From an uncultured Desulfosarcina sp. (lineage in GTDB: Bacteria > Desulfobacterota > Desulfobacteria > Desulfobacterales > Desulfosarcinaceae), in NCBI GenBank assembly GCA_963674945.2, contig CAXXWQ010000003.1:1280001-1344000 (forward strand): a DNA stretch of 64,000 bases, written 5' to 3'. The position numbers and the translations under genes were made by a program. Shown here one piece after another: positions 44,879 through 64,000 of the stretch (positions are counted from its first letter, which is position 1; each line of letters begins with the position of its first letter). Under the pieces are notes generated by a model. It searched no databases. It saw nothing but the letters and a program-made list of their open reading frames with translations, and was not told where the DNA came from.

Positions 44879-44952
44879 TCGAAGCGGCTTTCGTCTGGGT
44901 TCTGCTTCGGCGTTTTCAATTTTTACCGCGGCCCTAATAATAAGGTTGAGCT

Positions 44953-46236: not shown

Positions 46237-47188
46237 GAAAACGCTAATCGTATCCCACGCACCGTTTTGGCATGACGGCAGCGGGATTCCCGAGCGAAGT
46301 TATCACACCATCATCGCCGCCCTTCCCGCTGCGATCGTGGGAATTGCCCATTACGGCGCACCGGCTTTGGGTGTCATCAGTCTGGCCATGGCGTCGGCAA
46401 TCGGGTGGGAGCTTTTGTTCAACTACGTCAGCAAACAACCTTACACCGTGGGCAACGGCAACGCCGCCATGATCGGGTTGCTGCTCGCCATGGTGCTGCC
46501 CGCATCGGCACCCTGGTGGTTGGTCATCCTGGGTACATTCTTGGCCATCGTCATCGGCATGCAGATCTTCGGCGGCATCGGCGCCAATCCGTTCAACCCG
46601 GTGGTACTTGCCGTCGCCATCCTCATGGTCTCCTACGAGACGCATCTCGACTTCGATGCCGGTCTGGTCAATTTCTCCCTCGACTTTCCCATGTCAACCT
46701 ATCCATTAGGGGCTCTGAAAGCCTTCGGCCCCGGCGCCATCGAACATCTTCGGTCTACAGATCTGCTCATGGGTCTCCAGGTAGGTGGACTGGGCAGCGG
46801 TTGCGGCCTGGCCATTGTCATCGGTGGCATCTACCTGATTCTTCGGGGGATCATTCGGTGGGAAATCAGCGTCTCCTTCATCGTGGGCATCTTCGTCAGT
46901 GCCATGCTTTTCAACCTTGCCGATCCGATCCGGTATGCATCTCCGATGTTTCATCTTTTATCCGGTTACACGCTGATCGGTGCCTTTTTTCTGGCCACCG
47001 AGTCCTCATCTTCGCCGGTCAACGTCATCCCCATGTTCCTGTACGGCGCCCTGGGCGGCATCATGACCGTCCTGATCCGCAACATCGGCGTATGGGTGGA
47101 CGGCGTGATCTTCGCAATTCTTCTGATCAATCTGATAAATCCGCTGGTCGACAAGATCAGACCCAAGGCGATTGGAAAGGTAGCGTAA
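46226..47188 (+). CDS. rnfD: RnfD-like membrane subunit
   Basis: QIFGGIGANPFNP, GAFFLATE..SSP, DGVIFAILLIN..PLVD. Confidence 0.88.
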   Translation: MKSKKTLIVSHAPFWHDGSGIPERSYHTIIAALPAAIVGIAHYGAPALGVISLAMASAIGWELLFNYVSKQPYTVGNGNAAMIGLLLAMVLPASAPWWLVILGTFLAIVIGMQIFGGIGANPFNPVVLAVAILMVSYETHLDFDAGLVNFSLDFPMSTYPLGALKAFGPGAIEHLRSTDLLMGLQVGGLGSGCGLAIVIGGIYLILRGIIRWEISVSFIVGIFVSAMLFNLADPIRYASPMFHLLSGYTLIGAFFLATESSSSPVNVIPMFLYGALGGIMTVLIRNIGVWVDGVIFAILLINLINPLVDKIRPKAIGKVA

Positions 47189-47189
47189 A

Positions 47190-47783
47190 ATGGGTGAAAT
47201 GATCAAAATGGTCCTCGTTCTGACCGTCCTGAGCGTTGTATCGGGCGGCAGTCTCTCCTGGTTGAAAGACTTTACTGAACCCAAAATCGAAAATCAGGTA
47301 ATGAATCTGGTCAAAGGACCCGCGATCCGAAACATGCTCTCAGAAGCGGATAACGATCCAGTGGAAGACAGATTCAAGGTCACCGACGGTGACGTGGAGC
47401 GCAACGTCTTCGTGGGCGTGTTCGGTGGCAACGCCGACACGGTGGTGATGGAGTCAGAAGCCAATGGATTTGCCGACAAGGTGGGGCTGGTTGTGGCCAT
47501 CAACACGTCCAATGACACCCTGCGCGGCGTCGCTGTGACGACGAGCAAGGAGACCCCCGGTCTTGGCGCCAGGGCCAAGGACGACCCAAGCTTCGCCGCC
47601 CAGTTTGCGGGGAAAGAGATCGCCACCCCCTTCGGCGTCACCAAGGACGGCGGCCAGATCAGTGCCTTGAGCGGCGCCACGATCACCTCTCGGGCCGTCT
47701 GCACCGGAGTCAACGCGGCCATCAAGTCGTACAATCGGTTAAAACCGCAACTGGAAGAACAAATCAAAGGCATGGGCAAATAG
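47190..47783 (+). CDS. rnfG: RnfG subunit
   Basis: N-terminal TM segment, ETPGLG, FMN-attachment motif SGATITS. Confidence 0.92.
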   Translation: MGEMIKMVLVLTVLSVVSGGSLSWLKDFTEPKIENQVMNLVKGPAIRNMLSEADNDPVEDRFKVTDGDVERNVFVGVFGGNADTVVMESEANGFADKVGLVVAINTSNDTLRGVAVTTSKETPGLGARAKDDPSFAAQFAGKEIATPFGVTKDGGQISALSGATITSRAVCTGVNAAIKSYNRLKPQLEEQIKGMGK

Positions 47784-47796
47784 AGGAGTTACCGCA

Positions 47797-48420
47797 ATGG
47801 CAAAATCGTTCGTTCAGGAATTTACCAAGGGACTCTGGAAAGAGGTACCGCCGTTTCGGCTGGTCCTCGGTCTCTGTCCGACACTGGGTGTGACAACATC
47901 ACTAAAAAATGGCATCGGCATGGGCCTGGCCACGACTTTCGTCTTGCTCTGTTCTAACATTCTGGTCAGCCTTTTGCGGAAGGTGATTCCCGCCAAGGTA
48001 CGCATCGCCTGCTACATCATTATCATCGCCACCTTCGTCATCGTGGTCGAACAGGTGATGGCGGCCTTCGCCTATACCCTCTTTTTGGATTTGGGCGTGT
48101 TCATCCCGCTGATCGTGGTCAACTGTATCGTTTTGGGTCGCGCCGAGGCATTTGCCTCCAAAAACGGTATTTTCAAGTCTACCGCCGATGGTCTGGGCAT
48201 CGGACTTGGATTCACCTGGGCCCTGGGGCTGCTGGGCGCCGTACGTGAACTCATCGGCACCGGTTCCCTCAAGGGCGACGTCTTCGGTCTGATCCACTGG
48301 AATATTCAGGACATCTTCGGCGCCGGATTCGAGCCTTTTGCATTTGCCGTGCAGGCGCCGGGTGCCTTCGTTCTTCTTGGATTGCTGCTTTGTGCCATGA
48401 ACATGATCCCCAGTAAATAG
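47797..48420 (+). CDS. rnfE: RnfE subunit
   Basis: LGLCPTL, FIPLIVVNCIVLGRAEAFA, PGAF. Confidence 0.93.
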   Translation: MAKSFVQEFTKGLWKEVPPFRLVLGLCPTLGVTTSLKNGIGMGLATTFVLLCSNILVSLLRKVIPAKVRIACYIIIIATFVIVVEQVMAAFAYTLFLDLGVFIPLIVVNCIVLGRAEAFASKNGIFKSTADGLGIGLGFTWALGLLGAVRELIGTGSLKGDVFGLIHWNIQDIFGAGFEPFAFAVQAPGAFVLLGLLLCAMNMIPSK

Positions 48421-48439
48421 CGGAAGGGAAGCAATACAC

Positions 48440-49012
48440 ATGGAATATATCGAAATCATCATCGCTACCATTTTCGTTAATAACATACTGCTGGCACAGT
48501 TTCTGGGGAACTGCCCTTTTCTGGGAACTTCCAAAAAGATGGAAACTGCGGTGGGCATGGCCATGGCCGTCATCTTCGTTCTGGTCATGGCCGGCGCGAT
48601 CACCTGGCTCATCTACGCCTATCTGCTGGTACCGTTTAAACTTGTCTACCTGCGCACCATTGCCTTCATCCTGGTCATCGCAGCCCTGGTACAGTTCGTG
48701 GAGATGTTCCTGAAAAAAAGCATACCGGCCCTCTATGCCGGCCTTGGCATCTTCCTCCCCTTGATCACCACCAACTGTGCGGTCTTTGGCGTGTGTGTGC
48801 TTAACATCGACAAGGAACTCGATTTCATGCCGGCCCTGGTGACTTCCTTCGGATATGCCGCCGGTTTCGGTCTCGCCCTGATTTTCTTCGCCGGACTGCG
48901 GGAACGAATCCTCTTGGCACGGGTTCCCAAGCCGCTGCAGGACACTTCCATCGCCCTGATCACAGCCGGTATGGTGTCACTGAGTTTCTATGCCTTCCGG
49001 GGAATGGTATAA
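48440..49012 (+). CDS. rnfA: RnfA subunit
   Basis: VNNILLAQFLGNCPFLG, LGIFLPLITTNCAV, GLRER. Confidence 0.93.
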   Translation: MEYIEIIIATIFVNNILLAQFLGNCPFLGTSKKMETAVGMAMAVIFVLVMAGAITWLIYAYLLVPFKLVYLRTIAFILVIAALVQFVEMFLKKSIPALYAGLGIFLPLITTNCAVFGVCVLNIDKELDFMPALVTSFGYAAGFGLALIFFAGLRERILLARVPKPLQDTSIALITAGMVSLSFYAFRGMV

Positions 49013-49051
49013 ACGGGTGTCCTGGCGCCTATCGGGAGAGACGATAAACAC

Positions 49052-49097
49052 CGAAAAAAACCGTTTGGAGCGCTTGGGTTCCAAGCGGTTTTTTTCG
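49052..49097. terminator. Intrinsic-terminator-like hairpin between rnfA and rnfB
   Basis: cgcttgg-gtt-ccaagcg followed by g and T7; the right arm can alternatively pair with upstream cgaaaaaaaccgtttgga. Confidence 0.65.
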
Positions 49098-49125
49098 TTT
49101 TGATTTTGATTCAAGGAGGTTTTCC

Positions 49126-51201
49126 GTGACCATCGCGATTCTTGTCATGCTAGGCATCGGCGCAACCTGCGGCATCATCCTCAGCGTTGCCTCCAAGATC
49201 TTTTATGTCTATGAAGACCCGCGTATTGCCGAGGTGGAGTACTTTCTGGCCGGCGCCAATTGCGGAGGCTGCGGCTTCGCCGGATGCAGTGCAGCCGCCG
49301 TGGCCATCGTCGAGGGCAAGGCGGCCCCAAACATCTGCGTGGCCGCCGATTCCGATGCGGCCATCAACATCGCCGGCGTTATGGGTGTGGACCCGGGAAC
49401 GGCCGAACCCAATAAATCCCTTAACTCCTGCTCCGGCGGCGACCGCGCCGAAGACAAATTCATCTACAACGGCGCCATGACTTGCGCCGCCATGGCCACC
49501 TTGTACGGTGGCAAGCGGGTCTGTTCCATCGGCTGCATGGGTATGGGAGATTGCATCGCGTCTTGTCAATTCGACGCCATTCACATGGGACCCCACGGAT
49601 TTCCCGTGGTGGACGAGTTCAAATGCGTGGGCTGCGGTGCCTGTGAAGCGGCTTGCCCCAAGGGACTCATCTCCGTCAAAACCATGAGCCAACGGCTTCT
49701 GGTCTTCAACGAGGAAGACCAGGCCCTGGCCCCCTGCCAGCAGACATGTCCTGCGGAAATCGACATTCCCAAGTATATCCGTCTGATTAAAGAAGGCGAC
49801 TATGAAGGAGCCGTGAATACGATCCGTGAACGCAATCCGCTCCTGCTCAGTTGTGGCCGGGTCTGCCCCCACCCCTGCGAGGACTACTGCCGGCGTGGAA
49901 TCGAAGACGAACCGGTCTCCATCAACCAGTTAAAACGGTTCGTCGCCGACTATGAAATGAACAGCGGAAGGCGGTTTCCCATCGCCTGCGCACCGGACAC
50001 GGGCAAACGGGTGGCCGTTATCGGCGGTGGTCCTGCCGGTGTGAGCTGCGCCTACTTTTTGCGCCGTCTGGGACACCATCCCACCATCTACGAAAATATG
50101 TCCAAACTCGGTGGCATCACCCGCTACGGTATCCCCGAGTATCGCCTGCCGGACAAAGTGCTGGACTGGGAAATCGAGGGTATCTTGAACCTGGGCATCG
50201 ACGTTCACTACAACACCCAACTGGGAAGGGATTTTACCATTCAATCCCTCCGCGACGAGGGGTATGAGGCCATCTTCATGGGAATAGGTGCATGGAAAGA
50301 CTATACCCTGGGCATCGAAGGCGAGGAACTGGACGGGGTCACACAGGGGATCAAGTTTCTCTCTTCCGTCGCCGACTCTCCCGACAAAAGGGTCCCCATC
50401 GGAAAAAGGGCGGCGGTTGTCGGCGGTGGAAACTCGGCCATCGACTGCGTTCGCACCCTCTTGCGCCTCGGCTGTGAAGAGGTCTGGATCGTCTATCGAC
50501 GGACCCGTAAGGAGATGCCTGCCAACGAAGTGGAAATCGTCGCCGCCGAGCACGAAGGCATCAAGTTTCAGTTCCTGGCCGCCCCCACAAAGGTTATCGG
50601 AGACGAGAACGGAAAGGTCATCGGACTGGAATACCTGCAGATGGAGCTGGGTGAACCCGATGCCAGCGGCAGGCGCCGGCCGGTTCCCATCGAAGGCTCG
50701 GAGACGGTCCTTGACGTGGACATGGTGATCTCGGCCATCAGCCAGCAAGCAAATCTATCCTTCATGGAAAAGGAGCCGGAAAAAGAGAATATCGCCATCA
50801 CCCGCTGGAACACCTTCGACAACGACCCCGAGGTTCTCCAATGCAGTGTCCCCTACCTGTTCACCGGCGGTGACGTGGCAACCGGTCCTTCCCTGGTGGT
50901 GTCAGCCATCGGCGCAGGGCGTCGGGCGGCCCGCAGCATTCACCAGTATATCGCCGGCGAGGAGGTCAAGGGTTCTCCCAAATCGCTTCACAAGCGACAC
51001 ATTTTCGAGTCCTTGTTCGATTCCGTCCCCGGTGTGGTCAAATCCAAGCGGACGCCCATGCCCGAACTTCCCGTAAAGGATCGCATCCACAGCATGGTCG
51101 AGGTGGACCAGGTGATCAGCGAATCCGACGCCAAACACGAGTCCGGTCGTTGTCTCAACTGCTGCCGGGTCTGTTATAACCCCGATCAAAAGGTCGCGTA
51201 A
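49126..51201 (+). CDS. rnfB: RnfB fused to a GltD/NfnB-like FAD- and NAD(P)-binding Fe-S oxidoreductase
   Basis: N-terminal LAGANCGGCGFAGC and ferredoxin motifs; then APCQQTCP, NPL..CGRVCPHPCE..C, IGGGPAG, RYGIPEYRLP, VVGGGNSAIDC, YRRTRKEMPA. Confidence 0.9.
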   Translation: MTIAILVMLGIGATCGIILSVASKIFYVYEDPRIAEVEYFLAGANCGGCGFAGCSAAAVAIVEGKAAPNICVAADSDAAINIAGVMGVDPGTAEPNKSLNSCSGGDRAEDKFIYNGAMTCAAMATLYGGKRVCSIGCMGMGDCIASCQFDAIHMGPHGFPVVDEFKCVGCGACEAACPKGLISVKTMSQRLLVFNEEDQALAPCQQTCPAEIDIPKYIRLIKEGDYEGAVNTIRERNPLLLSCGRVCPHPCEDYCRRGIEDEPVSINQLKRFVADYEMNSGRRFPIACAPDTGKRVAVIGGGPAGVSCAYFLRRLGHHPTIYENMSKLGGITRYGIPEYRLPDKVLDWEIEGILNLGIDVHYNTQLGRDFTIQSLRDEGYEAIFMGIGAWKDYTLGIEGEELDGVTQGIKFLSSVADSPDKRVPIGKRAAVVGGGNSAIDCVRTLLRLGCEEVWIVYRRTRKEMPANEVEIVAAEHEGIKFQFLAAPTKVIGDENGKVIGLEYLQMELGEPDASGRRRPVPIEGSETVLDVDMVISAISQQANLSFMEKEPEKENIAITRWNTFDNDPEVLQCSVPYLFTGGDVATGPSLVVSAIGAGRRAARSIHQYIAGEEVKGSPKSLHKRHIFESLFDSVPGVVKSKRTPMPELPVKDRIHSMVEVDQVISESDAKHESGRCLNCCRVCYNPDQKVA

Positions 51202-51243
51202 AAATCACCGGCCACACGCTCTGCGTGTGGCCGGTGATTTTTA
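51199..51243. terminator. Bidirectional intrinsic terminator between convergent rnfB and helicase
   Basis: Perfect stem taaaaatcaccggccacacgc-tct-gcgtgtggccggtgattttta with A/T tails on both sides. Confidence 0.88.
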
Positions 51244-52959
51244 AAAAAGAGACATCTGCCCCTTTACATCCAGCGCCATACCAAACTCGTCCTCGAAATC
51301 GTCCTGCAACTCCTGGATCTCACCGGGTGTGAGGCCGGCGATGTTGGCGGTAATCATATTGTCTTTTCCATCGGCTTCCAGGTTGTGGATACGACAGCCA
51401 TCGGGCAACATGGAGCGCAGCAGCGTTCGTGGTCCGGAGGGACGCCCCCTCTTTTTTGGCGCTTCGTATATCACCGTCCGGCAGGAGACCCGCTGGATGT
51501 GCCACTTCAGATAGGCGAAGCGTTCGTTCTCCGTCTCGGGGGATCGAAAGGTGACCCTGAGCGTCGTATCATCCAAATGCAACCGGGAACCCGCCACACC
51601 CGCCTGCTTGAGGATTTTCCGAGTCTCGTCTCGGGCCTCCTTGACGCTGCATTCTCCCTCCCGCGCCTCGTAATGGAGCACCGGTTCGCCGTCCAGCCCG
51701 GCGGTCACGACCTCCGGCGGCAGGCTCATCAGAATGGATTGTACCTCTTCCAGGCAAACGGCGTCACGAATGCGCAAGAACGCATCGGGACAGGTCACCT
51801 TGATTCCGGAGAGAGACTGGGCCTGACGGAAGGGATCCGAACCACGACTCCTCCACTGTTTGGAAAGTCCTGCCATCTGGGCCGCCCCGTATTGCAGTGG
51901 ATGGACGCTTCTGTCGACGATGTCGATGACGGTGCAGGCATTCTTTCCAGGGGCCGTTCGCAGCCCCCGTCCGATACACTGGGTGTAAACCAGGGGCGAA
52001 GTAGTGGGCCTTGCCATGAGGATGCACGCAACGGTGGGGTCGTCGAATCCCTCGGTGAGCACCCCGTAGTTGGTCAACACCTGGATCTCACCCTTTGTAA
52101 AACGCTTCAGGATCTCTTCCCGATTCTTGCTCTTGCCGTCGATCTTCTCGGCCCGCACCCCCAAGGTGCAGAAGTCGGCGGCAAGATCCTGGGCGTGGTC
52201 GATACCGGCACAAAAGGCGATGGTCTTCCCTCCTTCACCCCGTTCCATCCACGCCTGTAAGGTCAACGCCCGGGTCTTAGGGGTGTTCATCACCCGTGAG
52301 AGGGCGCCCACCTGGAAATCGCCGGCCGACATCTTGACCCTATCCAGCTTGAGGTTCCCACGAATTGTGAAATACCGCATGGGCACCAGATAACCGAGAT
52401 CCTCCAGGTCCGGGCGGGAGATTTCGAATGCCGTTCGACCGAAGACGTCCAGGGCGGACTTGCCGTCCGTCCGCTGGGGGGTGGCCGTCATTCCGAGCAG
52501 TAACGTATCTCGATCTGCCTGGGTGTGAAAGTAGTCGATCACCTCCCCCCAACTCGGCGCCAGTGCCCGGTGGCATTCATCGCAGATGATCAAGGCGTAG
52601 GCTTTGGGATCGTAATTCTCTTTCCTGCGCACCAGAGATTGGACCGATGCCAGGACAATGGCGCCGTTGCCATGGGCCGTCCTCGTACCCTGCTCGATCT
52701 GCACCTTGATTCCCGGCAGATGCCGCCGGATGGTACGGGCGGTCTGGTCGATGATCTCCTTTCGATGGGCCACGAAGAGAACCTTGCCGAACCCTTTCGT
52801 GGTTCTAAGGGCCTTGATGATGTGGGTGGCGATCACGGTTTTCCCGGCACCGGTGGGAAGATAGAGAAGCATGCGCCGCTGGTTCTTTTCCTGGTACCGT
52901 GAAACGACGGCGGCAACTGCCTTTTTCTGATAGGGTCGAAGCCGAAATGGTTTGGTCAT
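51241..52959 (-). CDS. SF2 DEAD/DEAH-like (ResIII-type) helicase with uncharacterised C-terminal region
   Basis: LRPYQ, LPTGAGKT, DECHR, GMTATP, LTEGFD, YTQCIGRGLR; C-terminus QMSLF. Confidence 0.9.
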   Translation of the reverse strand: MTKPFRLRPYQKKAVAAVVSRYQEKNQRRMLLYLPTGAGKTVIATHIIKALRTTKGFGKVLFVAHRKEIIDQTARTIRRHLPGIKVQIEQGTRTAHGNGAIVLASVQSLVRRKENYDPKAYALIICDECHRALAPSWGEVIDYFHTQADRDTLLLGMTATPQRTDGKSALDVFGRTAFEISRPDLEDLGYLVPMRYFTIRGNLKLDRVKMSAGDFQVGALSRVMNTPKTRALTLQAWMERGEGGKTIAFCAGIDHAQDLAADFCTLGVRAEKIDGKSKNREEILKRFTKGEIQVLTNYGVLTEGFDDPTVACILMARPTTSPLVYTQCIGRGLRTAPGKNACTVIDIVDRSVHPLQYGAAQMAGLSKQWRSRGSDPFRQAQSLSGIKVTCPDAFLRIRDAVCLEEVQSILMSLPPEVVTAGLDGEPVLHYEAREGECSVKEARDETRKILKQAGVAGSRLHLDDTTLRVTFRSPETENERFAYLKWHIQRVSCRTVIYEAPKKRGRPSGPRTLLRSMLPDGCRIHNLEADGKDNMITANIAGLTPGEIQELQDDFEDEFGMALDVKGQMSLF

Positions 52960-52969
52960 GGCTGTTCAA

Positions 52970-54040
52970 TTATCGCAATGCGGCCAGTATGTCCGCGGTG
53001 GTCAGCCCCTCCTGGGGCCATCGCTCATCGTCGGCTTTTTCCAGGTACCTCTCTGCCAGTTCGTCGCCGAGCCAATGCTTTGCCAGGATCGGGTCGCGGT
53101 CTCTTTCCTGGGATCGGGCGTAGGAAACCGATAAATCCTTTTCCAAAAGCGCCCGGTAAAGGCCCTTTTCCGCTTCCATGGGCTGCATCTTTCTCTCCTC
53201 CCGGTATCCGTTGATGCGGCACGGGATGGCGATACCGGCAGGATCCAAGTCCCCGAAGTAACGGATGCCGTCTGCGGCCACCTGGAGTCGGATCTCCTCC
53301 AGGCCGTCGCTGGCGCGTTCGGCGGCACATGCCGTAAAGCCCTGACCGTAGACGACGGCGGCGTACCGATGAAGGTCATCGTTGGCCCGGAAGCAGCTCC
53401 AGTAGGTATTGGCGTTTTCCACCACCAGCAATGGTTTGCCTTGGGTCTGCCGTACATCCAGGGAGAAGGATCGAAAGGGAAGCGGTTCGGGACAATAGAA
53501 ACAGTCCAGGTCTTCCAGGGTGATGCGGCCGCCGAACATGCCGGTGCGCACGTATCGATCCAGGGCCTTTTCGTCGCCGAATATCTCCAGGGCGCGTTCC
53601 CGATGGGGCACACGTATCTGCCGCTGCGGACGGTGGAGAAGGTACCGGTTTATCCGTCTGGCACGTTTCAGTTCCCGCCTGGTGCGCAGGCTATGGGCAA
53701 AGGCCACCATTCGCGTGGGTTCCCATGCCGTTTCGTTGCGAAGGTCGGCCAGTGTCTTCTGTCTTGCCTGCTGAGTTTGATCCTCGGCGGTTCTTACGGC
53801 TGTGACGTACCCGGGCAGGCCGGTCCGTCGATCCCAGATATGCCTCGCCTTGGGAAGACGAAGACGGCCCTCTTTTGCCAACGCCGTAAGGGTCTCTTTG
53901 AGCCTGTCCTGGATTTCGAAATCGGTTCGAGGGCCGACGATGAGGCGACGAACGGCGGCTTCGATCTCGCCGATGGCCACCTGTTTTTTGCGGCTGGCAC
54001 CAAGCACCTGTAACACGGCATCACGCCATAACCGTTCCAT
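52970..54040 (-). CDS. jetD: Wadjet JetD-like TOPRIM nuclease
   Basis: RERALEIFGDEKAL, LLVVENANTY, VVYGQG, YFGDLDPAGI, WPQE. Confidence 0.85.
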   Translation of the reverse strand: MERLWRDAVLQVLGASRKKQVAIGEIEAAVRRLIVGPRTDFEIQDRLKETLTALAKEGRLRLPKARHIWDRRTGLPGYVTAVRTAEDQTQQARQKTLADLRNETAWEPTRMVAFAHSLRTRRELKRARRINRYLLHRPQRQIRVPHRERALEIFGDEKALDRYVRTGMFGGRITLEDLDCFYCPEPLPFRSFSLDVRQTQGKPLLVVENANTYWSCFRANDDLHRYAAVVYGQGFTACAAERASDGLEEIRLQVAADGIRYFGDLDPAGIAIPCRINGYREERKMQPMEAEKGLYRALLEKDLSVSYARSQERDRDPILAKHWLGDELAERYLEKADDERWPQEGLTTADILAALR

Positions 54041-57000
54041 CGCGCTTCTCCACGTTCAGCTCGGTAATCTCCAGCAGGTCATAGGCGACGCCGTCGATCT
54101 TTATTTTCCTCTCCCCTTTTCGGATGGCAACGCGAAGTTCGAACAGGTCCAGGGATTCGCGGTCATTGATGCCGGTAAGATAGACACACTGGATGCCCAT
54201 GGCCCTGGCCACTTTCAACTGCGCATCGAGAAAGTCCGATCGATTGCAGACCCCTAATGGGTTGTCCAGCACGAGGAAGGCGGGAATTCGCCCATCGGGC
54301 TGACTGTGTCGCCTTTTTCTCATGGAAATCAGCAGCGTATAGAGCAGTACCGCCGTTGTCAAGGCTTCCCCACCCGATCCCAGATCCTTTCCCACCGGCT
54401 CGTAGTTACGACCGGTATCGTCACATTTGATCAGCCGGATACCGAAAGTTTTCTTGCCGGTGGAAGCCCCCAGCAGCTGGTAGAGCAACTCCGATCCCAG
54501 GCAGTTTCCCGCCCTGGGATTCACCTCGGGCAGGCGGTCCTGCTGGATGAGTTCGTGAAGCCAATTCTCAACCGATCTCTTGAAATCCTCTTTGTACCGG
54601 ACAAAATCCAGCCTGGTTCCGGCGCGGAGGATGCTTCGGCCACCGTAGATGAACACGTCTTCGGGGATGGTGTGCTGGGCCGCCCCATGCAGCTTCTGAT
54701 GATACTCCTTGGCACGGGAAAGAAGCATATCCACGAGATTGTCGACGATCTGTTGAGAAATGGCAAGATCGCTCTCGATGTTTTGGGCGATGTCCTCGCA
54801 TCGCCGGATCAGTTCTTCCGCCTGGGCCCCGAGGGATTCGGGATCATGGCGCCGCAATTCATCGGTCACCGCAGGCAGGTGGCTTCGGAAGTGGTCCCCC
54901 TGAAGATCGGCCTGAAGGCGTTCGAAACCACCACCCAACCGCCGGCGGGCTGCATCCACGGCCTTTTTCTCCTCCTCCTGGGTCGTTTTCCGAAGGCGTA
55001 CCTGCTCCCGCAGGGCTCTTACCGCAGCCACCGTCTCCTCCGTGTCGGATGGCGCCAACGGATCCGTCCACGGGAATCTGGGGGAGTCGCCGTCCCAGAC
55101 GGGTGCAAAGGTCTCCGTCTGGACCAGACCGAGTTGCGTCTCCCGCTGCCACTTCTCGTGGACGGTGATCTGGTCCGATAGTTCCCTGCACCGCTTTGCC
55201 AGTCGCGCGCAGTTCTGTTCGTGGCGCAACGATTCACGCTGGAGGCGATGGATCATGGCGCTCGCATCCTGGCCGGCAAGTGTCTTCTCCACGATATCCG
55301 GCTGGATGCCTTTCTTTGCCAGTTCAAAAACCTGTTCTCTCAGCTTCTGGCTGTCCCGCCCTAGGTATTCGATCTCAGACTGCAGGCTGCCGGTTGCCCT
55401 CGTGCGTTTCTCAATTTCGCCGGCCAGCCACTGGCTTCGCACCTCCCGGTCGGCAGAACTCCGGGACGCCCAGCTGTCGGCCTGCTTCTCGTCGTACGCC
55501 CGTTCCCGGCGCAACGTCTCGAGCCGGGCCTCCCGTTCTGCGAGGACGATCTGCAGCTCGTCCAGCTCCTTTTGCAAAACGTCCTTTCCCAACTCGTCCG
55601 CCTTATGGCGCTGGCGCCGTAAGGCGTCCTCGAAGAGTCCCTTCAGGGTCGGAAGGTCCATGGCCATTGCCTCTTCGGCTTCCTCTTGGGAAAGTGCGGC
55701 TACTTCCGGCTTTACAACGTCGCCGGCCCGTTCATCCAGCCCTTTGAGCAGGATGGACCGCTCGCGGATGTCCCCATGAAGATCGGCAATCTCTCCTTGG
55801 ATTCGTTGGCGTGTATCGCTTTCGGCGTCAATGCCATCCGCCAGCGTTTTTCTGTCGCCGATCATCTTTTCCGCTTCCTGCTGCCAGGTGGTAAGCCGGC
55901 CGTATTGTCGGAGCCAGGATTCGATCTGTTTCAACCGCTCCTCCAGGCGGGCCTCATCGGCAGTCATGGATTGGATGGCGTGATCCTGATCGGCTTTTCG
56001 CTGTCGAAAGTCTGAAAAATGCGCCTCCGTATCGGCGATTTCCGATGCCAGTTCGGTAAGAGTCCGTTCCAACTCCCTGACACGGTCGGAAAGGCCATCC
56101 ACCGCGGATCTATCCGGGAACGTCTCCCGGTACACGTGAAGATCCCGGCTGTCCGCCTCCATCTCCCGCAAAGAAGCGGTTTCCTCGCCGATCTTTTGGA
56201 AAAGGGCTTTCGTCTTCTCTCGCATTCGGCCCAGCGTCTCCTCCAAATGGCGTTTGGCGTACACATCCGGATCGGCAGGATGGATCACCACCTGCTTGAT
56301 GTCGGTCAACGAATCAGGCGTACACGGAGTGGAGAGAACGACGGGCCGGTGGAGCCATCGGGGTACGGGCAGTTCCATAACGGCCTCGATCACCTTTTCG
56401 GTGGCGGCCATGATTCCGGTGAACCGGCCGGGATCACTTTCCAGGAAACGGGCGATCTCCTCGGGCGCTTCATACAGCCCGGCCAGGTACTCGGGAAAGG
56501 ATTTCAACTCCCCGGGAGATATTCCGCTCTCATGGTAATGGGTGATGAGTTTTCTCGTCTGGGCATCGCCGGTCAACGATTTGGCATCGGTCAATTGTTT
56601 CAGTTCCATCGAAAGGTCGGCATGCCGCTTTTCCATTTTTGCCAGGCGGTCCCGCCCGCGAACGATGGTGTCGTCCAGCTTGGATACCAGCTCCGCGGCC
56701 GTGGGTTCGAGTACCGGATTGCCGGCCACCCGCTGGAGGTGGGGGGATGCCAGAAGCCGGTTTCGCTGCCGGGCCTCGGCATTCACGCGCTCTGTTGCCC
56801 GATCCTGTTGTGCCTGAACCTCCAGCCGCTTCTTATGAAGCATTCGCCACCGCTCCTCGCCGATCTTGATCTTCTCGTCCAGGTCGACCAACCGGCCTCT
56901 CGCGATGGTGATTCGCTCCTCCACGGAACGAATCTCTTCTTTCAGGCGATTTCTAGCGTCTTCCACAGATTCGCCCGACTGCATGCAAAGGGCCGAGCGG

Positions 57001-58424
57001 CTCTCTTCGGCCGCACGGATGCGGGCCAGGGTTTCGGAGATCTTCTCTTCGAGCGCCTCTTTTTGTGATTCGCGTTCGATCAGACATTTTGTTGACGATG
57101 CCAGGGAGGCATCGAGGTCCGATATCCGCTTTTTTCGTTCATCGATCTCGCGTATCACACGCCGTCGTTCCCCATCGAGGCGTGCATGATATTGAAGGGC
57201 AAGCCCATCCACCCGTCGAAACATGGGTTCAAGTTCTTCGTTGGCCTGGGACAGGGCCTCCCGCTTCGTCTTCGCCTCGGCACGGCGGCGCAGGACTTGG
57301 GAAAGGACATCTGCGGCTTTCAGGGCATTTTCCTCTCTCCTGAATCCCTGGATCTCCTCTCTTGCCCGGGCGATCTCTTGTTCGGCCCGTGCAATCTGAT
57401 CTTTGAGCTGAAAACCTTTCACCACCGACAAGTTGGCCTGGACGACTTCTCGCTGTGAGGATGCATCGTGGCGTTGACGCTCCGCCTCTTTCAAGCCCGG
57501 GTTGAGGATGTTCAGTTTCCTTGCCACCGTCTGATCCGCATTTTTCATCAAATGGGTCGCCTCCCCCAGGGTAACCTGGGAGGATTCCACCGCATCCTGC
57601 GCTTGTCGCCACTCCTTGGCCAGGGTCTCGAAGTCGACGATTCGCTCCTTCAGTTCTCGAATTGTGTTCAGCTGTGCGATTTTCCTGGGACGGTCCTCCA
57701 TCTTTCGCAGGGACTTGCCGATGGTGTCGCGCAGGGTGACGGCCGCATCCATGTCGGCCACGCACCCGAGAAAAAAATCTAAGAAATCGTCCTCGGACCG
57801 AAATTTGAATGCATCCTTGATCCCCCCTTCGCTACGGGCGAAATCGATCTGTCGCTCCATGAGCCAGGGGTCCAGACCCAACCGCTGCAAGGTATCGGTC
57901 CACTCCTTCTGGCTGGTGGTCTGTTGAACATGGGTCCCGATGAAGTCCCGCACGGTCCGCCAGGGTTGCTCCTCGTCGAGAAGTTGTTCCCACCTGTCGC
58001 GAAACAGGTCGAAAAGGTCAAGGGCATGAGCAATGAAAAAGATGCGCTCCACCTTGTCCGCCGCGCTACGGTGACGATAGAGAAGCTGGCCGAGGACAAG
58101 GTGTTCCTCGGGCTGTGTCTCGAACAAAGTGGGCTGGCCCAAATTGGCCATGTCCAGCATCACCACGGCGGGTCGACCCGGAATCAGATATTGGTCCAGG
58201 GTTTTGTCCCCGCTGGACTGAAGGTGCTGAACAAAGCGTCGCTGGTCCGGACAAAAAACGTTGAGAAGAAAAGAGAGGACGGTGGTTTTGCAGGTACCGT
58301 TGGCGGCGAACAATACGCCGTGGTCGGCATGGCCGCTCTCTCGAACGACGGGCACGAAGGCGTTTTGCAAAAGGTTCTCCCCGGCCGTAACGTCGCTGAT
58401 GAAAAATCTACAGAGTCGATACAT
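54021..58424 (-). CDS. jetC: SMC-like ATPase, Wadjet JetC/MksB-like
   Basis: 1467 aa; N-terminal P-loop AANGTCKTT, long coiled coils, signature SGGE, Walker B/D-loop LVLDNPLG. Confidence 0.85.
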   Translation of the reverse strand: MYRLCRFFISDVTAGENLLQNAFVPVVRESGHADHGVLFAANGTCKTTVLSFLLNVFCPDQRRFVQHLQSSGDKTLDQYLIPGRPAVVMLDMANLGQPTLFETQPEEHLVLGQLLYRHRSAADKVERIFFIAHALDLFDLFRDRWEQLLDEEQPWRTVRDFIGTHVQQTTSQKEWTDTLQRLGLDPWLMERQIDFARSEGGIKDAFKFRSEDDFLDFFLGCVADMDAAVTLRDTIGKSLRKMEDRPRKIAQLNTIRELKERIVDFETLAKEWRQAQDAVESSQVTLGEATHLMKNADQTVARKLNILNPGLKEAERQRHDASSQREVVQANLSVVKGFQLKDQIARAEQEIARAREEIQGFRREENALKAADVLSQVLRRRAEAKTKREALSQANEELEPMFRRVDGLALQYHARLDGERRRVIREIDERKKRISDLDASLASSTKCLIERESQKEALEEKISETLARIRAAEESRSALCMQSGESVEDARNRLKEEIRSVEERITIARGRLVDLDEKIKIGEERWRMLHKKRLEVQAQQDRATERVNAEARQRNRLLASPHLQRVAGNPVLEPTAAELVSKLDDTIVRGRDRLAKMEKRHADLSMELKQLTDAKSLTGDAQTRKLITHYHESGISPGELKSFPEYLAGLYEAPEEIARFLESDPGRFTGIMAATEKVIEAVMELPVPRWLHRPVVLSTPCTPDSLTDIKQVVIHPADPDVYAKRHLEETLGRMREKTKALFQKIGEETASLREMEADSRDLHVYRETFPDRSAVDGLSDRVRELERTLTELASEIADTEAHFSDFRQRKADQDHAIQSMTADEARLEERLKQIESWLRQYGRLTTWQQEAEKMIGDRKTLADGIDAESDTRQRIQGEIADLHGDIRERSILLKGLDERAGDVVKPEVAALSQEEAEEAMAMDLPTLKGLFEDALRRQRHKADELGKDVLQKELDELQIVLAEREARLETLRRERAYDEKQADSWASRSSADREVRSQWLAGEIEKRTRATGSLQSEIEYLGRDSQKLREQVFELAKKGIQPDIVEKTLAGQDASAMIHRLQRESLRHEQNCARLAKRCRELSDQITVHEKWQRETQLGLVQTETFAPVWDGDSPRFPWTDPLAPSDTEETVAAVRALREQVRLRKTTQEEEKKAVDAARRRLGGGFERLQADLQGDHFRSHLPAVTDELRRHDPESLGAQAEELIRRCEDIAQNIESDLAISQQIVDNLVDMLLSRAKEYHQKLHGAAQHTIPEDVFIYGGRSILRAGTRLDFVRYKEDFKRSVENWLHELIQQDRLPEVNPRAGNCLGSELLYQLLGASTGKKTFGIRLIKCDDTGRNYEPVGKDLGSGGEALTTAVLLYTLLISMRKRRHSQPDGRIPAFLVLDNPLGVCNRSDFLDAQLKVARAMGIQCVYLTGINDRESLDLFELRVAIRKGERKIKIDGVAYDLLEITELNVEKRDGTVMA

Positions 58425-59196
58425 CTTCTTCTCCCGATTCCACTACCGGTTCTTTCTCTTCCTCTTCATATTCCACCAGAATGTCCCGAAAGGCGTGAAA
58501 GGAATAAACGATCCCCTCCCGCATGGCGGTCTGATAAGCCGGTGTGGGGCGGTACTCCATGTCGCCGGGAGTCTCTTCGAAAAGGAGAAGGTAGCCAGTT
58601 TCCACCAAATGCTCCAGTACCTGACGCACCAGGTCTACCCAACTATTGCCGGCGCCGGCACGCAGACGGTCGGGGTTGTCCTCGGGCAGCTCCCGCAGGC
58701 GCCGGGCCACGGTACGAACCTGGGGATGCAGCCGATCCTCCTCTTCGGAAAGGGCGGCCTCGGCGTGTGCAAAACGGCGTAGAATATCGATCACATCCCT
58801 CAAGACGATGGCGCCCAGGTCTTCCACGGGCATGTCCAGGTCCGCCTCGGTGGGAAAAAGCGCGGTGGCGATGGCGCAGTGAACCGGAAGGACATCCGCG
58901 GCCCTCAGGTCGCTTCGGGCCAGCAGGCGGCCATAGTCGGTAAGGGTTGTGGCAAAAAATCCGTCTGCGTTTCGGGCCGACAGGCGCAGGCCGCCCTCTT
59001 CCAGGGCAAGCAGCCGAAGTTCCATGGCCCGCAGGGCCGCAATCACGGCCTGGCGAAAGGCCTCTTCCGCCTGAAACCGCTGCACCAGCTCGGTCATCTC
59101 CGTGCTGTTCTGGGTCACGATGCGCTTTCTTCCACTGCTGTAGGCCAGGCTCAAGTAGACGAGTCGACCGGCATCGTATATCGTCTCCGCGTTCAT
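58408..59196 (-). CDS. jetB: Wadjet JetB-like (KITE) subunit
   Basis: 262 aa, between the putative kleisin and SMC, winged-helix-like end LVETGYL..YRPTPAY; assigned mainly by synteny. Confidence 0.65.
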   Translation of the reverse strand: MNAETIYDAGRLVYLSLAYSSGRKRIVTQNSTEMTELVQRFQAEEAFRQAVIAALRAMELRLLALEEGGLRLSARNADGFFATTLTDYGRLLARSDLRAADVLPVHCAIATALFPTEADLDMPVEDLGAIVLRDVIDILRRFAHAEAALSEEEDRLHPQVRTVARRLRELPEDNPDRLRAGAGNSWVDLVRQVLEHLVETGYLLLFEETPGDMEYRPTPAYQTAMREGIVYSFHAFRDILVEYEEEEKEPVVESGEEDVSTL

Positions 59197-60807
59197 TTAG
59201 CGCTCCTGTTGGGGTCGGGATGGGACCTTACGAATCAATCGGAGTTCATGCCCCCGATACCGCCGGCCTTTGCAAAGGTCCACGGCAATCCGAGTTCCGG
59301 GGTCGGGCAATTCCACCCGAATTCGGTTCCGGACGGCCAGGCGTCGCTCCACGGTGCACTGGAACACGGCCATGGCAACGGCCACGGGAAGGAGGTCGTC
59401 GTCATCCGAGCCGGCGGATTTGCGTGACGACGCCGCCAGCAACCGGCTGAGCAGAATTTCGCCATCTTTTTGCACCGTATCGTGAAGGAGTTCGAAAGCC
59501 GTGTGCATGAGCGATTCCGTGAGATCCGACGCGAAGTGCTGGACCGGAATCGTGTCGATCTCGTGAATGGTCTGTTTTCGGTCGCCGGGAACGTTTTTGC
59601 GTTCCAGTGCCCGGTCGCATGCCTCGATCACCGAGGCCGGATCGAACAAGGTTCGCTGGGCCGGCGGGTCGATGCGGGCAATGAACTGGGTCCCCACATC
59701 CGCCGCCTCGTCCTCGCCCAGTCGGCACAAACGGCGCATCACCTCTTCCATGGGGGGAAACACGCCGAGACTTCGCCTGCGAAAAAGTTTGAAGCTGTGG
59801 TAATGGTAGTCGTCCGGAAGCTGCTGAAGCTCGCCGGAGAGCTTCAGCAATTGGTCGTTGAGTCGTTCGAGCGTCTCGGCCAGCCGGTGAAGTTTGGCAT
59901 TGCGTTGCCCTTTGCCGGAGGCCATCAGGTTCTCGATGACCATATTATGCAGCCGCCGTCCCTCTTTCTGAATGGCCGTTGCCTGATGGACGCCCTCTTG
60001 TGCCAGCGCGCGCACATGTTCGAAGGCCACGGCGTGGATGTTTCGCCGGATCTGGCGGCGGGTGTTGTGAACTTCCAACGCTTTTCGGGAACACTGCTTT
60101 CGGTTCCCATCGGCAACGGAAAGGGCGTCATCCACATTTCCCCGCTCGATGAGCAGTTTGATCCGAAGATTGCCGATGGCCGCCGCGTCCAGTGCGCTGG
60201 TCTCGTGGAGCCCGAAATAGGCGGCGTATCCTTCGTCGGTTAGGGTGAAGAGGGCTTCGCGGCCTTCGCCGGTGTAAACCGTCTTGATCAGCCAGAACCG
60301 GCGAGTTTGGAAGCGGCCGATGGAACCGTCGAACCATGAGTATTGAAAGGGTAGATAGCGGTTGTTGCGGTTGACCAGATGATCGAACACCTTGTTGAGT
60401 ATGTCTGTCAACCCCTCAGTGGTTGCTTCGACACCGCAGGCGGAGACTTGCGCCCGGGCCAGAGGCAGGATTTTTTCCAGAACCTCGCCGCGGGTGGCAC
60501 CGGACTGATACTCGGTAAGCTCCGAAATGACATCTAAAATAGCAAAAGCGATCCACAAGGCATCCACCCCATCCCAGATGGCACCGGTGTCGTCCGGTTC
60601 GCTCTGTCCAAACCGGCGGGCCTCCAGTTCGAAGATGGGCCGCATAATGGAGGCGGAGTAAACCGCCCGGCTCACATCGGTCGTAAAACCCGGATCCGAA
60701 ACGCCTCCCGGATGGATGGAACGTGTCGACGCCTGGTTGTCTTCGTCGGGTGGCGTTGGTTTTTTCAGTTTCCTGGCAAAATCGATGAGGTCGAGTTGAA
60801 TGGGCAT
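59197..60807 (-). CDS. jetA: Wadjet JetA-like (kleisin) subunit
   Basis: First gene of the tightly coupled operon, about 536 aa, helical, FTLTDEG..IERGNVDDAL; assigned by size and synteny; start 60807 or 60867. Confidence 0.65.
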   Translation of the reverse strand: MPIQLDLIDFARKLKKPTPPDEDNQASTRSIHPGGVSDPGFTTDVSRAVYSASIMRPIFELEARRFGQSEPDDTGAIWDGVDALWIAFAILDVISELTEYQSGATRGEVLEKILPLARAQVSACGVEATTEGLTDILNKVFDHLVNRNNRYLPFQYSWFDGSIGRFQTRRFWLIKTVYTGEGREALFTLTDEGYAAYFGLHETSALDAAAIGNLRIKLLIERGNVDDALSVADGNRKQCSRKALEVHNTRRQIRRNIHAVAFEHVRALAQEGVHQATAIQKEGRRLHNMVIENLMASGKGQRNAKLHRLAETLERLNDQLLKLSGELQQLPDDYHYHSFKLFRRRSLGVFPPMEEVMRRLCRLGEDEAADVGTQFIARIDPPAQRTLFDPASVIEACDRALERKNVPGDRKQTIHEIDTIPVQHFASDLTESLMHTAFELLHDTVQKDGEILLSRLLAASSRKSAGSDDDDLLPVAVAMAVFQCTVERRLAVRNRIRVELPDPGTRIAVDLCKGRRYRGHELRLIRKVPSRPQQER

Positions 60808-61644
60808 TTGTTTTTCGTCGTCTGTGCGTCGTGGCGATTTCAATGGTATGACAATGATATAGCCCAATGCCTGTTGGTTTTCAATACGAACCGCGACGGA
60901 ATCGATGGTTGTGAAAATCCCGTCCAGAAAGCAGGATACGATTATCCTTGACTTTGATTGTGGCTATATTACATTGAAACAAGATTAAGATAAACGATGA
61001 AGCTTTATTCCTGCCGCGCATTTCACCTGTAACCACCGCCAACTGCAATGTGATACTGGTCCGCGTCCCGAACGAATCTGCTGTTGATGGGTGGCACATT
61101 GAAGTTTTCCGGCCTTCGGTCTTTCTGTCCGTATGCTCTCTTTCTGAATGACCGTCGCGTGTCGGACCAATACAAATTATCTTATCCCAAGCCGGCATCC
61201 TGGCCCCGGTTTGTCTTATCGAACATCGAAGTCGACGCGTCAGGTTGATCCCCGTATGTCGAGCCCGGTTGTTTCGTCAAAACTGCCATGTCAGGATACC
61301 GGCGGGATATTCCAATAGGAGCATGAACGGCGATCCAACAGTCAGTGAGGCAGCAAGACATTGGGGCTGGCCCTGTGGCGACCGGCCCGACCATAACCGG
61401 AAACGGAAACGATCCCACCTGCGATTTCCTCCCCGCGATTCAACATCAATACGAACACCACCGCACCTTTCCCTATAAGAGATGACATCTTTAATGGTGT
61501 TGTCAGTACCAAGACGTATATGGTAATCGTCTTAAAAGGTTTCTCATATTCCTGTTGGCCGATGCCGTCGGTGATGGCGTAACTTGTTGGCCGCCTCGCC
61601 CAAACGGGAATGGTTAAAAAAATCTGAAAGAAGGAGAGTATTCC

Positions 61645-62241
61645 ATGGTCAGCAACTGGAAACGGGTGCGTTTGATGATATTGTTTGTCCTCCTGGTGGG
61701 ATGTGCAACCGGGATGAAGACCGAAAGGGTCCGCCCCGATTATGAGGATAAGGTATACACAACCTTCAGCGCAACGGATTTGATCATCATCGCCCAAGAG
61801 ATGACCCAATCTTTGGTGGATCATTTCAAATTTGGCGAGGAAAAACCATTGGTGCGAGTGGATGTGGTAAAAAACAAAACCGATGAGCATATCGATACAA
61901 AATCCATCACCGATTCCATCGTGACCAAACTGGTAAACAGCGGAAAAATAAGATTTTCCGTCGATTATGCGGAACGGGAAGAGTACGAGAAAAGGGCCGC
62001 AGAAGAGGCATTCGAAACCAGGATCAGTGAAGAGGACAGGCAAATGTTTCTTTCCGATCAGCAAGCACCCAAGTATCGAATATATGGTGAGTTGACAAAT
62101 ATGAAAACCATCACCGAAGACACCAAGGACGTCTTTTTCAAATTCACATTGAAAATGGTGGATTTCAGGACGGGTGCCCTGGAGTGGGCGGATGAAACCC
62201 AATTACGAAAGGTGGGGAAAAAAAGGATGTTTGGCTGGTAA
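61645..62241 (+). CDS. lpoB: LpoB-like lipoprotein (penicillin-binding protein activator family)
   Basis: Lipobox LVG-C, VKNKTDEHIDTKSITDSI..LVNSGK, TLKMVDFRTGALEW. Confidence 0.8.
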   Translation: MVSNWKRVRLMILFVLLVGCATGMKTERVRPDYEDKVYTTFSATDLIIIAQEMTQSLVDHFKFGEEKPLVRVDVVKNKTDEHIDTKSITDSIVTKLVNSGKIRFSVDYAEREEYEKRAAEEAFETRISEEDRQMFLSDQQAPKYRIYGELTNMKTITEDTKDVFFKFTLKMVDFRTGALEWADETQLRKVGKKRMFGW

Positions 62242-62267
62242 ACGACAATATTTATGGAGGCACGAGA

Positions 62268-63453
62268 ATGTCCCGTAATATAGGAAACATACCTTTCCTG
62301 ATCTTTATTTCTCTTCTTTCGGGATTCCTGTTGTTCCCCCCCCCATGTTCAATCCAACCAGAAATTCATTCACGCGTGCGGCATGGCTCCGGTGATCGAC
62401 AAAAATGTTGGCAGAGCAAGGACGCAGGCCCTTTCGGAGGCCAAAAGAAATGCCGTGGAGATCGGCATCGGCACCCTCGTCAGTTCACAGACACTGGTAA
62501 ACAACGCCGTTCTGGTCAGTGACCGCATCTACTCCCAGGCAGCCGGATATGTGACCGACTACAAAATCGTATCGGAGGGTGTCACGCCCAACGGCAGCAC
62601 GTTTGAGCTGTGCATGAATACAACAGTTGATATCGGGAATATCGAAGATGATCTCAGGGCCATCGGGATACTCAAACGGCAAGTGGGCAATCCCAGGTTT
62701 ATGACCTTGTACATTCCGGAAATCGAGGGGGGATCCGGAAATGTTGCACCTGTCGTTCAATCGATACGACGCGTCATCGATGATCTATTTATTGATAAAG
62801 GATTTATCGTTCTCGACAAGATGTTCGTCCGTGATTTTGTCAATAAGGTAAATCAAAAGAGTGCCGGTGACTTGAAAAATGTGTCCTCGATGGCGTTGAA
62901 GTATCAGGCAGACCTGATTCTGCTCTTCGATATCGACGCTACCGAACGGACCGATATTTCAAACAAGTATTTCAAGGAGGTCCATCTCGCCGTGGATATC
63001 CGTTCCGTTTCCCCTTCCACTTCCGATATCATCGCTGCCGGAGGGGAGTCAAAAACGGTGAGAACGTCAAGGAAAATGGACGGCGACTACCTCGAGAGTT
63101 CGGCGATCACGAGCGCCGCGACGAATCTTGCCGAACAGGTCGCCGAAAGCTTGTTGGGAGAAGTACTGGCCTACTTTGAAAGGCAAAGTCATGAAGGTAC
63201 CCGCTACAAGTGCCGTTTCTCAGGATTCACACAGATGGAACGGTTTGCCATCGTCGAAGTCATCGAAAACATGAATGGCGTCATGGATAAAAACATGAGG
63301 CGCCAGTCCACAGATTCCATTGAACTGGACATCGACTATTTCGGAAAGCGTTTCGATTTCCAGCGGGAACTGATATCAGGTCTTACCAAAAAGGGAATTG
63401 ACGTCGAAATAAAAGAATCGGAAGGCAATTCGTTTGTATTTACCAAACCATGA
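62268..63453 (+). pseudogene. Exported FlgT-N/LPP20-like protein, frameshifted at a C9 tract (or sequencing error)
   Basis: A signal-peptide ORF from 62268 (GGAGG RBS) joins the 62383..63453 frame (ARTQALSEAKRNAVE..G) if one C is removed from 62336-62344. Confidence 0.6.
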
Positions 63454-63518
63454 CGGTTAACGGCTGAAATCGTCGTGGAGCACCTTCGTCGTCGAAACCG
63501 GATTGAATAAAACAATAT

Positions 63519-64000
63519 ATGTTATTTTTTCAATATTTTAGGATAGAAGCGCCCTCAAAGATAGCATTCCGGCCAGAGATCAAGGCGGAGCCACGTTTCA
63601 AGCCGCAAGCATATATTGAATATGTTGAGGATTTGAAATGTGGCCCAACAAAGATATTGGGTTGGAAGAAATTTTGGAGATCACTTCTAATTATTATACT
63701 CTTTTGGGTCATTAGTTGCGCAGCCCAGATGCATACCGAACAAATGGCCGATATCAGGGGATCTCTTGCCGAAGGGCATAACCGATTGGACTTGCTTGAA
63801 GAAAGGGTTTGCACCAATAAGGGAGAATTTCGAAGCAACGCGGATCTTATCAATCTCCTGGAATTGGGTGCCCTTTACGCAATTGTCTCCGAATTTGTGA
63901 AAAGTAATGAAGTGCTCGAAATTGCCTACCGGAAATACACGAACCGGGAGGAACGAGCAAGGATCAGCGCGCGGGATACGACGAAAAATGCCCTGGATGT
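63519..64000 (+). CDS. Lipoprotein, COG3014-like, truncated by window edge
   Basis: Manual translation is open from ATG 63519 to the window end; lipobox VIS-C; LINLLELGALY..SNEVLEIAY. Family call from motif recall and lpoB context. Confidence 0.6.
   Translation, partial: MLFFQYFRIEAPSKIAFRPEIKAEPRFKPQAYIEYVEDLKCGPTKILGWKKFWRSLLIIILFWVISCAAQMHTEQMADIRGSLAEGHNRLDLLEERVCTNKGEFRSNADLINLLELGALYAIVSEFVKSNEVLEIAYRKYTNREERARISARDTTKNALD
63544..63689. mobile_element. MITE-like non-autonomous element with TA ends
   Basis: Terminal inverted repeats TAGAAGCG / CACTTCTA, internal inverted repeat gccacgtttcaa / ttgaaatgtggc; removing it restores a compact signal peptide. Confidence 0.7.

Follow-up and report, generated by a model that had tools for sequence, protein, structure and literature searches.

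The stretch of DNA analysed here, called the window in the following, comprises 64,000 nucleotides of an uncultured Desulfosarcina sp. (contig CAXXWQ010000003.1 of assembly GCA_963674945.2, family Desulfosarcinaceae) and carries on its minus strand a four-gene Wadjet operon that is followed by a gene for a superfamily 2 (SF2) helicase. Five co-oriented open reading frames (ORFs) occupy positions 59197-60867, 58408-59196, 54021-58424, 52970-54040 and 51241-52959, and none of the five contains an internal stop on translation. The first is jetA (59197..60807), which encodes a type III kleisin-like subunit matched to JetA3 in PADLOC, and the second is the presumed, KITE-like jetB (58408..59196; 262 amino acids), which was assigned mainly from its position. 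These are followed by jetC (54021..58424) for a type III ATPase of 1467 amino acids resembling structural maintenance of chromosomes (SMC) proteins and matched to JetC3, by jetD (52970..54040) for a type III Toprim nuclease subunit of 356 amino acids matched to JetD3, and by the helicase gene (51241..52959) for a protein of 572 amino acids with ResIII and Helicase_C domains. The start of jetA was left between TTG at 60867 and ATG at 60807, because alignments with its relatives begin anywhere from residue 4 to residue 21 of the longer frame, which is open up to the TTG.

The genes are closely packed. The stop codon of jetA (59197-59199) abuts the start of jetB at 59196, the overlap is 17 bp between jetB and jetC and 20 bp between jetC and jetD, and the helicase ATG lies 10 bp past the TAA of jetD, behind a spacer (52960..52969, minus strand) without a Shine-Dalgarno-like sequence. 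Directly at the other end of the helicase gene, starting at its stop codon, an intrinsic-terminator-like hairpin (51199..51243) with a perfect 21-bp stem and a 3-nt loop was found, for which a dG of -37.6 kcal/mol and a z-score of -9.46 were calculated, none of 200 shuffles being equally stable. An A-run and a T-run border this hairpin, which is bidirectional and common to the helicase and to a convergent plus-strand gene of 691 amino acids that belongs to an rnf cluster and ends at 51201, facing the hairpin. The hairpin is not among the sites of a terminator consensus scan, whose total of 11 is no excess over the 11.8 expected. Promoter-like sites were found at 7 places versus 3.5 expected, which is uninformative, and the consensus scan showed no sigma-70-like site within 300 bp upstream of the helicase ATG, which is weak evidence. 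An initial annotation of the window had reported the same abutment, overlaps and 10-bp gap over the span 51241..60807, and had placed the only obvious terminator after the helicase. Its view that a five-gene unit is likely agrees with the position of the helicase as a fifth cistron behind a 10-bp gap, with the lack of a Shine-Dalgarno-like sequence at that junction and with the single terminator, and co-transcription of the helicase with jetABCD is likely.

With regard to the Wadjet genes, JetA was matched by the PADLOC model JetA3 (PDLC00569, E 1.2e-29) over residues 64-480, JetC by JetC3 (PDLC00578, E 4.5e-63) over residues 40-1440 of 1467, and JetD by JetD3 (PDLC00594, E 8.7e-63) over residues 11-348, the coverage being near full length for JetC and JetD and extending over most of JetA. 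The Wadjet types implemented in PADLOC are reportedly those of Doron et al. 2018. General protein family collections were less informative. JetA had no Pfam or NCBIfam family match, JetD reached 20.8 bits with Pfam JetD_C, just below the cut-off of 22, and NCBIfam gave nothing specific for the first four genes. Orthologs of JetA with 47-74% identity precede jetB in related loci. In JetD, the motifs VVENANT (residues 206-212) and GDLDPAG (263-269) are present, which we take to be the Toprim glutamate and DxD motifs.

JetC contains a Walker A motif (NGTCKTT, residues 42-48), a signature motif (GSGGE, 1349-1353) and the sequence LVLDNP (1384-1389) at the Walker B position. The latter reads Asp-Asn and lacks the catalytic glutamate, in place of the Asp-Glu that is canonical for SMC and ABC ATPases. 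As all 25 related JetC heads that were aligned have the same Asp-Asn, including those of distant loci in Paraburkholderia, Rhodoferax and Actinoallomurus, this is a family-wide feature of type III JetC rather than a defect of the gene.

The gene at the jetB position has a counterpart between jetA and jetC in every complete related operon, at 52-89% identity. Its protein had no match in PADLOC (13 members, E up to 10), in Pfam or in a profile search of the PDB, and its nearest clusters in the ESM Atlas, DUF6063 (0.95-0.97) and MksE/MukE (0.84), serve as leads only.

Judged by its gene models, the operon does not represent a new SMC system but an ordinary, intact Wadjet of type III, since PADLOC places JetA3, JetC3 and JetD3 in type III. 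The initial annotation had called it divergent and Wadjet-like; of this, the assignment to Wadjet stands and the divergence does not. With other type III systems the operon shares the three matches, the 262-amino-acid gene at the jetB position, the overlapping four-gene arrangement and the Asp-Asn at Walker B. It differs from them in that the protein at the jetB position fits no JetB model and in that a RadD-like helicase follows jetD as a fifth cistron, which is seen in this cassette lineage only.

The identification of the fifth gene as an SF2 helicase, already proposed in the initial annotation, was supported by matches to Pfam ResIII (3.6e-36) and Helicase_C (7e-15) and by the motifs PTGAGKT (residues 35-41), DECH (127-130), TATP (158-161) and QCIGRGLR (327-334). 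Residues 5-349 form a RadD-like core. The closest named family is RadD/YejH of NCBIfam (NF053632), with a score of 155.5 bits that stays below the cut-off of 720 and an alignment restricted to positions 1-356 of the 573 in the profile. By sequence, the closest solved structure is E. coli RadD (6jde, E 8e-33), and when the model of the helicase was searched with Foldseek, RadD chains took ranks 1-8 with E values down to 7e-24. E. coli RadD (YejH; PDB 6jde, 7r7j, 8h5y) is hence the best match to the core in both sequence and fold, and the two proteins measure 572 (helicase) and 586 (RadD) amino acids. They differ in the C-terminal 220 residues of the helicase, which have no match in the RadD profile or in PDB sequences, and in the clamp-binding-type QMSLF with which the helicase ends. 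RadD is listed among SSB partners in a review (PMC11253446) and is named as an SSB interactor in the abstract of another paper (PMC10238739). The core is also matched by PADLOC models for restriction helicases of types IV and I (mREase_IV, 2.1e-42), over its generic part only. Three more SF2 relatives, about 31% identical to the helicase core, were seen in the window's own genome, G000 (C3:2415079-2416101, C3:2513608-2517579 and C3:913908-914957; genomes and loci are given by our own numbers), and one of them has an internal TAA.

The last 213 residues of the helicase were modelled alone with a mean pLDDT (predicted local confidence) of 79.7 and gave two small alpha/beta modules (residues ~438-572). 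A KH-type domain was considered as a candidate for these modules. The KH domain of NusA2 was the best match in VIA (Z 8.6 over 61 residues, root mean square deviation 2.1), and KH-domain proteins reached a Foldseek TM score of ~0.25; as these matches lie within the range of a common arrangement, no family is claimed. No nuclease or other effector domain was found in the helicase, the C-terminal half of which consists of the two alpha/beta modules and the clamp-type motif.

This motif is the end of the protein itself. The helicase terminates in GQMSLF, and QMSLF (residues 568-572, codons at 51244..51258 of the minus strand) lies in a low-confidence, disordered tail of the models. In one listing of orthologs, GQ[ML]SLF or a one-residue variant of it was present at the C-terminus or within 7 residues of it in 22 of 22 sequences; in a second listing, GQ[ML]SLF was terminal in 18 of 21, the remaining three having been cut one residue short with GQLAF at the end. 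A passage in a published report gives QL[S/D]LF or QxxLF as the consensus for binding to the beta sliding clamp and describes QLSLF at the C-terminus of B. subtilis PolC (PMC12309361). The QMSLF of the helicase fits this consensus, and the protein is predicted from this motif to dock on the beta sliding clamp DnaN, which was located in the genome of the window. As in known clamp-binding motifs such as that of PolC, the pentapeptide stands at the extreme C-terminus and is kept across the helicase family, the binding being a prediction here. We know of no RadD-like helicase with a terminal clamp motif, the searches made not having been designed to exclude one. No description of the helicase family was found in the literature looked at.

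To see how regularly the helicase accompanies Wadjet, one genome per species was scanned with JetD, which gave 32 loci, and those 18 loci with type III JetD (JetD-III) were judged in which the DNA extends for 1.7 kb or more past jetD; L013, L017, L020 and L022 were too short downstream for judging. A helicase ortholog follows jetD in five of the 18 (L009, L010, L012, L019 and L008), in L019 after a 1.1-kb spacer and in L008 with helicase residues 1-238 only, and it is not present behind jetD in the remaining 13. In a tree built from 20 JetC sequences (LG+G4, quick search), from which L019/G016 was omitted for lack of a full JetC, the six helicase-linked sequences fall into one clade with an SH-aLRT of 100. 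As they form a single clade, the linkage of helicase and Wadjet traces to a single event.

Two side observations were made on the related loci. A helicase-free sister Wadjet-III (L011) carries another co-oriented ORF of 400 amino acids (11020-12222, plus strand), which overlaps the end of jetD and has no Pfam or PADLOC family. In two other loci, jetC and jetD are parted by inserted DNA, of ~2.8 kb in L024 (7150-9981) and ~7 kb in L021 (2940-10001).

Within Desulfosarcinaceae, a helicase ortholog with at least 77% identity was found in 10 of 65 genomes, that of the window included; beyond these, G045 has only a relative of 37%. A JetD-III sequence was found in eight of the 65 genomes, with the helicase adjacent in seven. 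A tight junction behind an intact jetD is present in G000, G015, G017, G021 and G005. In G016, which is represented by a draft contig, jetD is split between frames and a 1.1-kb spacer leads to the helicase, and in G026 the helicase stands beside a jet remnant only, with no JetD_C match anywhere in the assembly (94% complete). Genome G043 has both helicase and Wadjet III, ~3 Mb apart, and its Wadjet is of a different JetC subclade. G034 and G025 have the helicase without JetD-III; a JetD-type sequence elsewhere in the genome was found in G025 (195 bits), and a weak 40-bit match in G034.

The remnant of G026 belongs to a group of loci that document how the two parts came to be separated. In G026/L042, L046, L047 and L049, the helicase stands behind fused remnants of JetA (amino acids 20-108), JetC (1423-1467) and JetD. 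The JetD remnant comprises either amino acids 1-99 plus 302-355 or 1-36 only, which corresponds to two states of erosion. These scars (L042 7827-8637, L047 199-1009, L046 1-346 and L049 1370-1832) are the product of an in-place deletion of nearly the whole Wadjet, followed by erosion. G026 has the same upstream flank, an aldehyde dehydrogenase and a PtsP-like gene, as G015 and G021 with their intact cassettes. Three of the four scar loci have a complete helicase frame, and L049 has a possible shift near residue 15-20. Since the helicases of L047 and G026 are identical, these two are not independent.

The reverse situation is seen in L008, in which jetABCD is intact and helicase residues 1-238 are followed by unrelated sequence and a gene for an MFS transporter. 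Other helicases stand alone. In G034, G043 and G025, only the helicase ORF resembles the cassettes at the nucleotide level, and no jet remnants were found beside these copies by tblastn (E up to 0.01) or blastn. In L041, which is the locus of G043, a 44-53-bp copy of the 3' end of the helicase gene, 77-86% identical, was observed 3 kb downstream (14457-14513), with two unrelated genes in between; an insertion may have left it there as a duplication.

Selection on the helicase was estimated from the ratio of nonsynonymous (dN) to synonymous (dS) substitution rates, and dN/dS was 0.09-0.19 in all 15 pairs computed. It was 0.14 between scar loci (dS 0.06), 0.115 between the lone copy of G034 and its linked sister in G017, and 0.094 between the lone copy of G043 and the near-identical L048, which has too little upstream DNA for its context to be judged. 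In the helicase tree, the copies of Desulfosarcinaceae form one clade (100/100) with the linked G005 as basal member. The lone copies are nested inside this clade, with G034 as sister to G017 (95/88), and all 12 outgroup rows are lone.

Outside the family, a word-index protein search gave 1677 relatives of the helicase, of which the best 120 are full length with 60-100% identity; the source names among the relatives include Desulfosarcina, Desulfatitalea, Myxococcota, Polyangiaceae and Anaeromyxobacter. Orthologs in distant lineages have 53-68% identity. In a scan of metagenomes with an alignment of 22 orthologs, 79 loci were kept, 64 of them orthologs at 49% identity or more, and 54 of these 64 comprise the N-terminus and at least 300 bp of upstream DNA. 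Jet-derived sequence was found upstream in three of the 54 (L046, L047 and L049), all of them remnants beside helicases 82-83% identical to that of the window, and in none of the 51 orthologs below 75% identity; it was likewise absent from the 41 of these 51 with at least 1.1 kb upstream. No widely conserved neighbour of the helicase was found, the largest cluster being a TPR protein in one subclade (nine of 38 loci). Among 30 immediate neighbours that were scanned, metabolic, sensory and unknown genes are mixed, most of them housekeeping-like, and the only defence-type neighbours are a TIR-TPR gene and AbiEi. No ortholog of at least 60% identity was found in 72,556 plasmid and 50,697 phage records, which contain only core-domain relatives of at most 40%.

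The TPR neighbour characterises a subclade (L086-L095) about 53% identical to the window helicase, in which a TPR protein of 650-750 amino acids is encoded directly upstream in nine loci (for example L086 2324-4426 and L092 178-2430); the frame in L092 opens with a UvrD_C-like piece.

The initial annotation had proposed the helicase as a fifth component of a Wadjet variant. Two lines of evidence speak against a fifth subunit. Most helicase orthologs have no link to jet genes, which were found upstream in 0 of the 51 more distant ones; and the parts survive separately, the helicase remaining intact under purifying selection without Wadjet and jetABCD persisting in L008 behind which the helicase is truncated. 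None of the literature titles and abstracts that were listed describes a Wadjet extended by a helicase, which is no proof that there is none.

Taken together, the locus is explained best, and with moderate confidence, as a type III Wadjet with a lineage-restricted, likely co-transcribed and separable RadD-like helicase as a passenger, which is probably clamp-tethered and not a subunit of Wadjet. According to this explanation, a single event in Desulfosarcinaceae would have placed the helicase gene at the 3' end of the cassette in one Wadjet-III lineage. In type I Wadjet, JetABC extrudes DNA loops and JetD cuts small circular DNA, and by analogy the same may be expected of the type III proteins here. 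The helicase would be expressed, likely through read-through and translational coupling, and would work on substrates of its own, probably branched or gapped DNA at sites marked by the clamp. Such a role of DNA-repair type is inferred because of the RadD-like core and the C-terminal QMSLF. Both of these repair-type features, the best match to RadD and the terminal clamp-type motif, are common to the whole helicase family, whether linked or lone.

Several points weigh against a mere passenger. In Desulfosarcinaceae the helicase is a sporadic gene the history of which is tied to the cassette, because no copy of it was found (E <= 1e-100) in 400 other genomes sampled from the phylum. The tight five-gene junction has persisted over JetC identities of 63-66%, a helicase dS of 0.8-1.4 and at least four flanking contexts, namely rnf in G000, aldehyde dehydrogenase in G015 and G021, and others in G017, L008 and G005. 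Furthermore, expression of the helicase in the cassette probably depends on the operon, because Shine-Dalgarno-like sequences are absent from the linked jetD-helicase junctions; in the linked loci with a clear start (G000, G015, G021 and L008), the helicase ATG is found at most ~25 nt from where jetD ends. The lone helicases have unrelated upstream DNA of their own, which together with the missing Shine-Dalgarno sequences points to coupling of expression in the cassette. At the scar loci, the 5' end of jetA and the DNA upstream of it are still present, and the helicase there may thus use the jet promoter. Finally, the helicases of G025 and G043 may act in trans, with the other JetD in G025 and with the distant Wadjet III in G043.

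These points lead to the alternative that the helicase, while keeping a basal function of its own, is an optional but genuine accessory to this lineage of Wadjet III. Recruited via the sliding clamp or via cut ends, it would unwind plasmid DNA that is cleaved by JetD or is replicating, or it would widen the range of targets. The tight block in five species-level genomes (G000, G015, G017, G021 and G005) with differing flanks fits an accessory, as does the plausibility of translational coupling, and the helicase seems to have entered the family only with the cassette, given that jet genes or scars lie beside it in seven of the ten genomes and that it is missing from the 400 others in the phylum. 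However, the linkage is of single evolutionary origin and does not extend to any of the 51 more distant orthologs, and sister Wadjet-III operons do without the helicase. Purifying selection on the helicase is the same after loss of Wadjet, in L008 Wadjet persists beside a truncated helicase, and no feature was seen that divides linked from lone helicases, the lone copies nesting among the linked ones. An accessory role is therefore held to be doubtful.

A related and unlikely possibility is that the type III Wadjet of one cassette lineage captured a clamp-tethered RadD-like helicase as an optional fifth component. If this were true, SMC-guided cutting of plasmids would be coupled to DNA that is clamp-marked, replicating or nicked, and a natural link would exist between a loop-extruding defence complex and the hub of the host replisome. 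Such a link would also be relevant to the way in which plasmids are distinguished from chromosomes by SMC defence systems.

Least probable, to the point of being remote, is an independent single-gene defence or anti-mobile-element factor co-located with Wadjet in a defence island, for although the core matches the PADLOC restriction helicase models, the gene is patchy in the family (10 of 65 genomes) and some lone copies lie near TIR-TPR (L051), AbiEi (L066) or a type I R fragment with RhuM (L042), the PADLOC matches span the generic helicase core only, a nuclease or effector domain was not found, the degree of conservation (53-68% identity, dN/dS about 0.1) is high for a defence gene, the neighbours are mostly housekeeping-like and the plasmid and phage records hold no ortholog of 60% identity or more.

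Other features of the window lie on both sides of the operon. The rnf cluster (44432-51201, plus strand), with a cytochrome c3-type gene in front, contains rnfC, D and G, genes for two Rnf-Nqr membrane subunits and, as the last, the gene for the 691-amino-acid Fe-S/flavoprotein, which combines RnfB-type Fe-S domains with Fer4_20 and a pyridine-nucleotide-disulfide oxidoreductase module. Directly upstream of jetA, a block of lower GC content (61342-64000 of the window; L131 1342-5996) has ~47-50% GC versus ~59% in the operon. It comprises four ORFs of 286, 356, 529 and 247 amino acids with no Pfam or PADLOC family match, and no integrase was seen in the 12 kb beyond it.

For the favoured explanation of a separable passenger, the significance lies first in the way defence operons are read, as an operon that appears to be extended can stem from one capture event. 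The locus also offers a worked example of how a subunit may be told from a passenger by means of deletion scars, lone copies and measures of selection. The helicase family itself, which is strongly conserved, sporadic in occurrence and RadD-like, with a tail predicted to dock on the sliding clamp, may merit study in its own right.

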